Positions 51,001-54,000 of a stretch of DNA of 64,000 nucleotides are shown here, one piece after another. Position 1 is the first letter of the stretch. Each line of letters begins with the position of its first letter. The position numbers are program-made. The DNA comes from Escherichia coli (GTDB taxonomy: Bacteria > Pseudomonadota > Gammaproteobacteria > Enterobacterales > Enterobacteriaceae): assembly GCF_002854065.1 (NCBI RefSeq), contig NZ_CP024147.1. The stretch is one strand, 5' to 3'.

Positions 51001-54000
51001 CATTCTGCCAGACGTCGAAAGCCTGCGTATTCCGGTACAATATCTGGCGAATCTGCTGACCGCCGGTGATACCAAACCGGTACTGCGCGCGCTGAAACGT
51101 ATGCTGGCGATGCGTCATTACAAACGTGCTGAAACCGTTGACGGTAAAGTTGATACCCGTGCGCTGGAAGAGGTCGGTCTGACCGAAGCCCAGGCACAGG
51201 AGATGTACCGTTATCTGGCGATTGCTAACTACGAAGATCGCTTTGTGGTGCCGAGTAGTCATCGTGAACTGGCACGGGAAGCCTTCCCGGAGAAAAATGG
51301 CTGCGGCTTTACCTTTGGTGATGGCTGCCACGGTTCAGATACCAAATTCAATCTGTTCAACAGCCGTCGTATCGATGCCATCGATGTGACCAGCAAAACG
51401 GAGCCGCATCCATGATCGAACTCGTGATTGTATCGCGTCTCCTTGAATATCCGGATGCTGCCTTATGGCAGCATCAACAAGAGATGTTTGAGGCGATTGC
51501 CGCGTCGAAAAATCTGCCAAAAGAGGATGCCCATGCGCTGGGCATTTTCCTGCGCGATTTAACGACGATGGATCCGCTCGATGCCCAGGCGCAGTACAGC
51601 GAACTGTTCGACCGTGGCCGCGCCACGTCACTGTTGCTGTTTGAACATGTGCACGGCGAATCCCGCGACCGCGGCCAGGCGATGGTGGACCTGCTGGCGC
51701 AGTACGAGCAGCACGGCTTGCAGTTAAACAGCCGCGAATTGCCGGATCATCTGCCGCTGTATCTGGAGTACCTGTCGCAGCTGCCGCAAAGCGAAGCCGT
51801 GGAAGGTTTGAAAGATATCGCGCCGATTCTGGCATTGCTGAGCGCGCGTCTGCAACAGCGTGAAAGCCGTTATGCCGTGCTGTTTGATCTGCTGCTGAAA
51901 TTGGCCAATACCGCTATCGACAGCGACAAAGTGGCGGAAAAAATTGCCGACGAAGCGCGTGATGATACGCCGCAGGCGCTGGATGCTGTCTGGGAAGAAG
52001 AGCAGGTTAAATTCTTTGCTGACAAAGGCTGCGGTGATTCAGCAATCACTGCTCATCAGCGTCGCTTTGCCGGTGCCGTCGCGCCGCAATATCTGAATAT
52101 CACCACCGGAGGACAGCACTAATGCAATTCCTGAATATGTTCTTCTTTGATATCTACCCGTATATAGCCGGGGCGGTCTTCCTGATTGGTAGCTGGCTGC
52201 GTTATGACTACGGGCAGTACACCTGGCGCGCGGCGTCCAGCCAGATGCTGGATCGCAAAGGGATGAACCTGGCGTCGAACCTGTTCCATATCGGTATTCT
52301 GGGGATTTTTGTCGGTCACTTCTTCGGTATGCTGACGCCGCACTGGATGTATGAAGCCTGGCTGCCGATTGAAGTGAAACAGAAAATGGCGATGTTTGCT
52401 GGTGGTGCCAGCGGCGTGCTGTGTCTGATTGGCGGCGTGCTGTTGCTTAAGCGTCGTCTGTTCAGCCCACGCGTGCGTGCAACCACTACCGGAGCGGATA
52501 TCCTGATCCTGTCGCTGCTCGTTATCCAGTGCGCGCTGGGCCTGCTGACCATTCCATTCTCCGCTCAGCATATGGACGGTAGCGAGATGATGAAACTGGT
52601 TGGCTGGGCGCAGTCGGTGGTGACCTTCCACGGTGGCGCTTCTCAACACCTCGATGGTGTGGCGTTTATCTTCCGTCTACACCTGGTGCTGGGGATGACG
52701 TTATTCCTGCTGTTCCCGTTCTCGCGTCTGGTACACATCTGGAGCGTACCGGTGGAGTATCTGACACGTAAGTACCAGCTGGTGCGCGCTCGTCACTAAG
52801 CGAATTTTAGTTCACATAGACCCTGCTTCGGCGGGGTTTTTTTATGGGCACGGTGCGGGGTGAGTTGTCGGATGCGCTTCGCTTATCCGACCTACAGGGG
52901 AGGATATTGTAGGTCCGGTAAACGCGGTGCCATCGGGCAGAATTAGCTCGGAGTAACAGGTTTTGAGTATTTCAGGAAGAAATGGTGGTGGGGGAAGGAT
53001 TACTCAGCGCTGCGCGCTTCGCCCTTCGGGTCGTTGCCTGCGGCAACGCTTTCTCATTGGCGCTCGAGTCGAACCTTGGTCGAAGCTTCTCATCCTTCCC
53101 CGCATGGGCAGAATATTTAATTGCGGATTCGTTTGAGAGTTTACGGACTTTTGAAAAGTGATGGTGGTGGGGGAAGGATTACTCAGCGCTGCGCGCTTCG
53201 CCCTTCGGGTCGTTGCCTGCGGCAACGCTCTCTCGCTGGCGCTCAAGTCGAACCTTGGTCGAAGCTTCTCATCCTTCCCCGCTTGGGCAGAATATTTAAT
53301 TACGGATTCGTTTGAGAGTTCAGGGACTTTTGAAAGTGATGGTGGTGGGGGAAGGATTACTCAGCGCTGCGCGCTTCGCCCTTCGGGTCGTTGCCTGCGG
53401 CAACGCTCTCTCATTGGCGCTCGAGTCGAACCTTGGTCGAAGCTTCTCATCCTTCCCCGCATGGGCAGAATATTTAATTGCGGATTCGTTTGAGAGTTTA
53501 CGGACTTTTGAAAAGTGATGGTGGTGGGGGAAGGATTACTCAGCGCTGCGCGCTTCGCCCTTCGGGTCGTTGCCTGCGGCAACGCTCTCTCGCTGGCGCT
53601 CAAGTCGAACCTTGGTCGAAGCTTCTCATCCTTCCCCGCTTGGGCAGAATATTTAATTACGGATTCGTTTGAGAGTTCAGGGACTTTTGAAAGTGATGGT
53701 GGTGGGGGAAGGATTCGAACCTTCGAAGTCGATGACGGCAGATTTACAGTCTGCTCCCTTTGGCCGCTCGGGAACCCCACCAGGGGTAATTCAAATTTCG
53801 AGGTAATGCTTGAGATGGTGGTGGGGGAAGGATTCGAACCTTCGAAGTCGATGACGGCAGATTTACAGTCTGCTCCCTTTGGCCGCTCGGGAACCCCACC
53901 ACGGGGTAATGCTTTTTACTGGCCTGCTCCCTTATCGGGAAGCGGGGCGCATCATATCAAATGACGCGCCGCTGTAAAGTGTTACGTTGAGAAAAATGAA

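Follow-up and report, generated by a model that had tools for sequence, protein, structure and literature searches.

A duplicated two-unit RtT block in the tyrT-tyrV locus of an Escherichia coli strain with the common 34-bp inter-tRNA spacer

Two identical tRNA genes only 34 bp apart, followed by alternating long repeats, raise the question of how such a locus came to be arranged and which of its features set the strain apart. The locus lies in a stretch of 64,000 nucleotides of E. coli DNA (NCBI RefSeq assembly GCF_002854065.1, contig NZ_CP024147.1), hereafter called the window. An earlier note, made from the sequence alone, had read it as tyrT-tyrV with a higher-order repeat structure and had suggested that recombination between repeat units might have shortened the distance between the tRNA genes. 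The tyrT-tyrV operon is long known, its repeats were described as early as 1978, and only the duplication of a repeat dimer is particular to this strain.

The features of the locus are compiled in Table 1. Between the stop codons of narI (52799) and purU (54060), a distance of about 1.26 kb, two tandem tRNA-Tyr(GUA) genes follow the tyrT promoter. Both are called as tRNA-Tyr(GTA) on the minus strand by ARAGORN, and sequence comparison finds tyrT and tyrV to be the same, which agrees with the identical genes and the gap described in the earlier note. The promoter region is unchanged from K-12 and almost unchanged from E. albertii in the alignment, and it is the sole promoter-like site that the scan returned upstream of the array on the same strand; we take it to be the classic stringently controlled tyrT promoter. 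On the transcribed strand downstream of the array, a terminator scan found no intrinsic terminator. The locus is very probably the E. coli tyrT-tyrV operon, with one promoter, two tRNA-Tyr genes, and a tail of tandem tRNA-linked repeats (RtT).

Table 1. Coordinates of the features of the tyrT-tyrV locus in the window.
Feature	Position	Strand	Description and evidence
narI, flank on the distal side of the array	52122..52799	+	ORF list; annotated homologues likewise placed in K-12 and further strains
narI terminator hairpin	52818-52839		terminator scan
RtT unit 4, 179 bp, A type	52983..53161	-	Rfam 52983-53114, 131.1 bits
tpr-like frame, unit 4	53004-53093	-	intact, 29 codons; E15K relative to unit 2
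RtT unit 3, 178 bp, B type	53162..53339	-	Rfam 53162-53293, 134.2 bits
tpr-like frame, unit 3	53183-53272	-	TGA at codon 10
RtT unit 2, 179 bp, A type	53340..53518	-	Rfam 53340-53471, 131.1 bits
tpr-like frame, unit 2	53361-53450	-	intact, 29 codons, arginine-rich
RtT unit 1, 178 bp, B type	53519..53696	-	Rfam RF00391 53519-53650, 134.2 bits
tpr-like frame, unit 1	53540-53629	-	TGA at codon 10
tyrV, tRNA-Tyr(GUA), second copy	53697..53781	-	ARAGORN; Rfam tRNA match
inter-tRNA spacer, 34 bp	53782..53815	.	TCTCAAGCATTACCTCGAAATTTGAATTACCCCT on the transcribed strand; alignments
tyrT, tRNA-Tyr(GUA), promoter-proximal	53816..53900	-	ARAGORN; Rfam tRNA, 53.4 bits
tyrT promoter	53951..53978	-	-35 TTTACA, 16-bp spacer, -10 TATGAT, then G+C-rich GCGCCCCGCTT; consensus scan, 10/12 matches
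purU, flank upstream of the tyrT promoter	54060..54902	-	ORF list; annotation of homologous loci

The repeats behind tyrV form a single array (52982-53715), which TRF resolves either as 4.1 copies of a 179-bp period (95% matches, score 1349) or as 2.1 copies of a 357-bp period (99% matches, score 1461). The tandem periodicity is far above chance. When units were delimited on the transcribed strand at every recurrence of the tRNA-like end ...CCTTCCCCCACCACCA, four units of 178, 179, 178, and 179 bp were obtained in the order of transcription, and with this unit cutting and TRF the four repeats of the earlier note are confirmed. Unit 1 equals unit 3 exactly, while units 2 and 4 are 1 nt apart; A and B types differ at 8-10 positions by alignment, including the 1-bp difference in length. 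The array is a duplicated 357-bp block of two units, as had been claimed. Its order, given as A-B-A-B, holds for the plus strand only, whereas transcription meets the units as B-A-B-A, with the stop-containing type first after tyrV.

All four units match RF00391 over model positions 1-130 of 130, scoring 131.1-134.2 bits against a gathering score of 45. Their 3' ends carry the same 18-19 nt as the tRNA, including the CCA, and ATCCTTCCCCCACCACCA is the shared 3' end of tyrT, tyrV, and all four units; such a tRNA-identical end characterizes tRNA-linked repeats, or TLRs (PMC8144298). The arrangement is strictly head to tail: unit 1 begins one base past the CCA of tyrV, and the units abut without gaps. 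In other strains, RefSeq labels the homologous units as 'RtT sRNA, processed from tyrT transcript'. Folding of a single RtT unit yields a modest z-score of -1.7, and an alignment of 30 units from several genera combines very high sequence conservation with compensatory changes in 2 of 27 predicted pairs. For the structure of the units, the Rfam model was therefore relied on.

The gap between the two tRNA genes differs from that of K-12, the usual reference. The earlier note had given a spacer of about 200 bp for K-12, and this is accurate: with the end of tyrV at 1287328 and the start of tyrT at 1287538, 209 bp lie between them. These 209 bp consist of a divergent 175-bp RtT unit (L001 1064-1195, 132.9 bits in Rfam) and 34 bp that equal the spacer of the window bar one base, so that the latter aligns with the terminal 34 bp of the K-12 spacer. 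The same single mismatch count is found against O157 and 20KM2222, while CUWW06, 100416, and 95-3192 have the identical 34 bp. Alignment of the window with K-12 or E. albertii opens one clean 175-bp gap with AATCCTTCCCCCACCACCAT on both sides. This 20-bp direct repeat is the 3' end of tyrT and also the 3' end of the inter-tRNA RtT unit. Thus, the short and long forms are related by a precise deletion or insertion between the 20-bp repeats.

To that extent the proposed recombination between repeats stands; the idea that it is peculiar to this strain, or recent in it, does not. Among 5,426 complete E. coli genomes, 2,901 (53%) carry the short spacer, as judged by a full match to the spacer-to-tRNA junction, and a further 1,613 have the spacer-to-RtT junction only. 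The K-12-type inter-tRNA unit occurs in 1,920 of the 5,426 (35%), and the remaining genomes have single-gene or other forms. The short-spacer count was obtained with a 59-nt query spanning the spacer-to-tRNA junction (E≤1e-8), which excludes a separately matching tRNA piece and separated the two kinds of junction cleanly. Two earlier BLAST designs had failed to count the short spacer, because pieces within about 500 bp of each other were joined and K-12-type loci looked 100% covered. A systematic sample of 60 records agrees in giving 31 short doublets, 19 loci of the K-12 type, and 10 others. This last class includes O157:H7, which resembles K-12 except for an altered base in the unit's 3' end, as well as single-tRNA loci (e.g. 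YD786) and loci without repeats. The 34-bp spacing is therefore the commonest arrangement in E. coli and not a rearrangement specific to this strain.

According to the earlier note, an identical arrangement in reference strains would mark the short form as ancestral. Reference strains do share it, among them W, O104:H4 2009EL-2050, and, with a distal spacer of variant sequence, ATCC 25922, but the outgroups point to the long form. One genome per bacterial species was scanned for the exact 20-nt RtT-end pattern, which returned 105 stretches from Enterobacterales; gathered by this pattern, the set is biased toward loci with RtT units. Where species loci had two tRNA-Tyr genes, 29 showed a long spacer with a unit, 9 an intermediate one, and 19 a short one (22-37 bp). 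The layout tRNA-175-34-tRNA recurs in E. albertii, Citrobacter portucalensis, C. youngae, Klebsiella spallanzanii, Raoultella, and others. A distance tree built from 63 units places the inter-tRNA units from Escherichia, Citrobacter, Klebsiella, and Raoultella in a single cluster, where each has its closest counterpart from another genus at 85-97% identity. Over all sampled loci, mean identity is 79% among inter-tRNA units and 68% between inter-tRNA and post-tyrV units. Units also move within the locus, since E. coli E69 and C. amalonaticus ku-bf3 have an inter-type unit after the second tRNA, and gene conversion or transfer can blur an ancestral state that is read from the way units cluster.

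Because the inter-tRNA units cluster across genera, the long spacer is probably ancestral and its unit was probably lost more than once. The converse, that 34 bp is the original spacing and that K-12 gained its 209 bp when an RtT unit was inserted or duplicated between the tRNAs, draws on the prevalence of the short spacer in E. coli and on its frequency in Enterobacter, Citrobacter, and Pseudocitrobacter (19 species loci). We regard it as highly improbable. Inter-tRNA and post-tyrV units of the same genome are very unlike each other, being separated by 55 differences in a 181-column alignment of units of about 178 nt. Moreover, the inter-tRNA units of E. albertii, Citrobacter, Klebsiella, and Raoultella, at the identities given above, are followed by the same 34-bp segment, and orthologous units at one place are not expected from independent insertions. 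With the long spacer as the probable starting point, we infer that the 34-bp form derives from a 175-bp deletion between the 3' ends of the tRNA and of the RtT unit, an event that would be old or recurrent, although it is now the majority allele.

While the spacer is common property, the array behind tyrV varies from strain to strain. AVS0786 and DFL.5 (H235) have no unit after tyrV, CUWW06 and 95-3192 have one, 100416 and O157 LSU61 two, K-12, YD786, and XJ34 three, 20KM2222, B27, and 210221272 four, and Ec-U4-19 has five. Copy number is given here only as this range of 0-5, the systematic sample of 60 rows containing many partial matches. The 4,951 bp left of the array, from narG to slightly beyond narI, are reported to be 100.0% identical in the window and in both 100416 and CUWW06, and these flank-identical genomes carry four, two, and one unit, respectively. 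The B unit (units 1 and 3) equals the sole unit of CUWW06, the first unit of 100416, and the last unit of O157 LSU61, and unit 4 equals the second unit of 100416. From these identities, the array of the window corresponds to the B-A pair of 100416 plus one 357-bp dimer, except that a single base is altered in the internal A unit. The 179-bp A allele itself is rare; it is found at 100% identity only in 100416 and at 99% in two bovine strains. In four of the five other expanded arrays (Ec-U4-19, 20KM2222, 210221272, and XJ34), the extra copy duplicates the first unit, and B27 has four distinct units. The window holds the only duplication of a dimer among the expanded arrays examined, and no complete genome matched the four-unit array at an identity of at least 99%. 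Shigella or another species was considered as the origin of the window for want of such a match, and was rejected in view of the 100.0% identity reported for the flank with two E. coli genomes.

This lack of a counterpart might suggest that the assembly, rather than the strain, duplicated the dimer and that the true array has two units as in 100416. Such an artefact would fit with 357-bp tandem repeats, which are longer than short reads, and with 100416 itself, which among the genomes examined shares the identical flank and both unit types and has exactly one B-A dimer. It is nevertheless highly improbable: the two A copies are one base apart, which a simple duplicated-collapse error does not produce, and arrays of four and five units in other complete genomes make four units biologically ordinary. 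The four-unit array is likely a strain-level variant at a site of hypervariable tandem repeats, brought about by unequal recombination or slippage. In the proposed course of events, unequal recombination or replication slippage would yield B-A-B-A by a register shift of two units. Within a two-unit array, this shift would pair only 19-20 bp, the 3' end of tyrV with the 3' end of a unit. Alternatively, the four-unit form could have come first, and the two-unit allele would have resulted when its identical B units recombined; for the choice between duplication and deletion, the comparison rests on three genomes.

A more active role of the repeats can also be conceived. RtT units might propagate or excise via their tRNA-identical 3' ends, as small circles, by targeted recombination, or linked to processing; or copy number and order might be selected for their effect on Rho-dependent termination or 3' processing and, through it, on the yield of tRNA-Tyr. 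We hold either to be extremely unlikely. Such a role would be compatible with the two-unit shift, which needs an exchange within only about 19-20 bp of homology, and with the inter-tRNA unit having been lost precisely and repeatedly in several genera. It would also be compatible with the report that stress enriches the tyrT-tyrV locus in a 'mobilome' fraction resistant to exonuclease (bioRxiv 10.1101/2024.07.17.603846).

The two unit types differ not only in length but also in the fate of a small reading frame. Translation of the units bears out the earlier note: the 29-codon frame is open in units 2 and 4 only, and in units 1 and 3 a change from CTCGAG to CTCAAG (plus strand) gives TGA at codon 10. 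Compared with tpr of K-12, where the homologous frame is annotated as 'protamine-like protein', units 2 and 4 share A13M, to which unit 4 adds E15K. Beyond the window, the frame is poorly kept. Most units stop at codon 6 or 10; among 60-odd units, it is intact only in some from E. coli and in one start-less unit from E. albertii, and not one intact copy is present in, for example, CUWW06 and O157 LSU61. Units from other genera mostly have a stop after codon 5 of the homologous frame, or else the frame runs into an unrelated peptide; their nucleotides are highly conserved. In B units, the stop stems from a C>U change, by which a predicted C-G pair becomes U-G (alignment columns 61-74).

Since the frame is lost while the nucleotides and the predicted pair are kept, the constraint appears to act on the RNA or DNA element, with the frame incidental to it. 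The tpr frame is probably an accident of the repeat sequence and not a gene. The opposite reading makes tpr a real gene for a basic peptide of 29 residues, with the A units as two functional copies and the B units as pseudogenes. It can point to the ATG-initiated, intact 29-codon frames of units 2 and 4 and to the tpr annotation of K-12; a gene for a tpr-type protein was reportedly proposed by Altman et al. in 1981. We consider it most unlikely, as many E. coli units are interrupted and some strains would be left without the gene, as other genera do not maintain the frame despite the high nucleotide conservation, and as a stop-creating change that preserves the predicted pair as G-U fits a constraint on RNA or DNA and not on a protein. 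A literature search found no report of translation of the tpr (b1229) peptide. With a reading frame that is not conserved, the peptide, which the earlier note had suggested seeking by proteomics, is unlikely to be found in that way.

The expression of the locus can be outlined by analogy with K-12. One transcript would run from the tyrT promoter through both tRNAs into the repeats, and the tRNA-like 3' ends of the units may direct the same 3' processing as that of the tRNA, which would release RtT RNAs of about 170-180 nt. Termination at the tyrT locus of K-12 is Rho-dependent, and transcription in the window would likewise be expected to end within the array by Rho. For K-12 only, a discrete RtT RNA of about 171 nt is described as being released from the primary transcript (Bosl & Kersten 1991, as related in PMC3318445 and PMC8144298).

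As a textbook tRNA operon with repeats known since 1978, the locus has little consequence beyond annotation, where three points matter. The K-12 layout, although the usual reference, is a minority form, found in about 35% of the complete E. coli genomes as against 53% with the short spacer. With one, two, and four units beside a flank reported as 100.0% identical, the tyrT-tyrV repeats make a length marker that changes fast and a place where assemblies are likely to go wrong. Finally, the annotated tpr 'protamine-like protein', its frame not being conserved, calls for direct evidence before it is taken to be a gene.

Repeats of this kind have a long history. TLRs were first described in 1978 by Egan & Landy, whose work is cited in PMC8144298 for a 178-bp repeat present 3.14 times; the same source credits Rudd (1999) with 22 TLRs at ten tRNA or rRNA loci of K-12 and Bosl & Kersten (1991) with the rtT RNA at the K-12 tyrT locus. 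The last 18-19 nt of a TLR exactly match those of the tRNA or rRNA that precedes it, and TLRs have no known function (PMC8144298). In vitro, the rrn-linked TLRs RrA, RrB, and RrF bind Hfq and CsrA, and the tRNA-linked TLRs, those of tyrT included, scored <0.01 as CsrA binders in the same study (PMC8144298).

Set beside these systems, the window shares with the tyrT-tyrV-rttR/tpr locus of K-12 the site between narI and purU, the promoter, the identical tRNA genes, and the 34-bp segment before tyrV, and the repeats of both belong to one family with tRNA-identical 3' ends. K-12 has the extra divergent 175-bp RtT unit between the tRNAs, and behind tyrV it has three different units (3.1 x 178 bp). 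In contrast, the window lacks an inter-tRNA unit and has four post-tyrV units as a duplicated dimer, which includes the rare 179-bp allele. Closer relatives are 100416 (NZ_CM128593.1) and CUWW06 (NZ_CP182139.1), in which the flank is reported as 100.0% identical and the spacer and B unit are identical to those of the window; 100416 additionally shares the identical distal A unit. They differ in the array, with two units (B-A) in 100416, one (B) in CUWW06, and four (B-A*-B-A) in the window. Like TLRs in general, the units of the window lie downstream of a stable-RNA gene whose 3' end they copy, and TLRs are, from the literature, co-transcribed and processed.

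The inter-tRNA unit, the divergent 175-bp tRNA-linked repeat (RtT) that lies between tyrT and tyrV in K-12, can be deleted in part as well as whole, as indicated by intermediate inter-tRNA spacers in four loci. The spacer of Escherichia sp. E1V33 measures 138 bp, and L016, L074 and L101 likewise carry intermediate spacers, the unit between the tRNA genes being cut down to 104-105 nt in Pluralibacter, Pseudocitrobacter and a further locus. The 3' end of the inter-tRNA unit in E. coli O157:H7 LSU61 reads ...CCCCCACCGCCA in place of ...CCACCACCA, so it no longer forms a perfect 20-bp direct repeat with the 3' end of tyrT. 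Given the broken repeat, the 175-bp deletion proposed to proceed via these sequences may be less likely in the O157 lineage.

Citrobacter sp. MGH106 carries three tandem tRNA-Tyr genes separated by 35-bp spacers. The first unit downstream of this trio is a chimera, composed of a tRNA-Tyr body on its 5' side and RtT sequence on its 3' side, which are joined at AAGGTTCGA, a T-arm-like motif common to tRNA-Tyr and RtT. This arrangement suggests a second recombination hotspot at the locus and hints at a possible tRNA origin of RtT. The E. albertii doublet is non-identical, since the variable arm of its promoter-proximal copy reads CACAGAC, compared to CATCGAC in E. coli tyrT and tyrV. In E. coli AVS0786, a single tRNA-Tyr without any RtT unit is adjoined by sterol-desaturase and fatty-acid-desaturase family genes at the usual site of narI and the repeats, indicating that the distal flank has been replaced. 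Across the E. coli genome collection, the K-12 inter-tRNA unit matches up to five separate places in some genomes, and a few dozen plasmid matches to tRNA-Tyr/RtT sequence were found (36 places). Both may reflect amplification or mobilisation of the locus.

Two long open frames run antisense to the repeats and tRNAs of the window, and ychS is the K-12 annotation of such a frame. All of these arise from the repeat sequence and are most likely spurious.

Coordinates of features at the compared loci and in the window
Feature	Sequence	Position	Strand	Remark
tRNA-Tyr trio region	L069 (Citrobacter sp. MGH106)	6774-7460
Chimeric unit	L069	6949-7089
Promoter-proximal tRNA-Tyr	L010 (E. albertii)	2384-2468
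Intermediate spacer	L061 (Escherichia sp. E1V33)	8712-8849
Locus without repeats	L006 (E. coli AVS0786)	1-1587
Open frame	Window	53158-53493	+	111 aa
Open frame	Window	53515-53964	+	149 aa
ychS	L001 (K-12)	410-685		'putative uncharacterized protein'
rdlD antitoxin RNA, copy 1	Window	36252-36317	+	Rfam, 83.6 bits
rdlD antitoxin RNA, copy 2	Window	36787-36852	+	Rfam, 91.8 bits

Elsewhere in the window, the two rdlD matches mark a tandem two-copy ldr/rdl type I toxin-antitoxin locus; the corresponding K-12 locus presumably comprises three copies.
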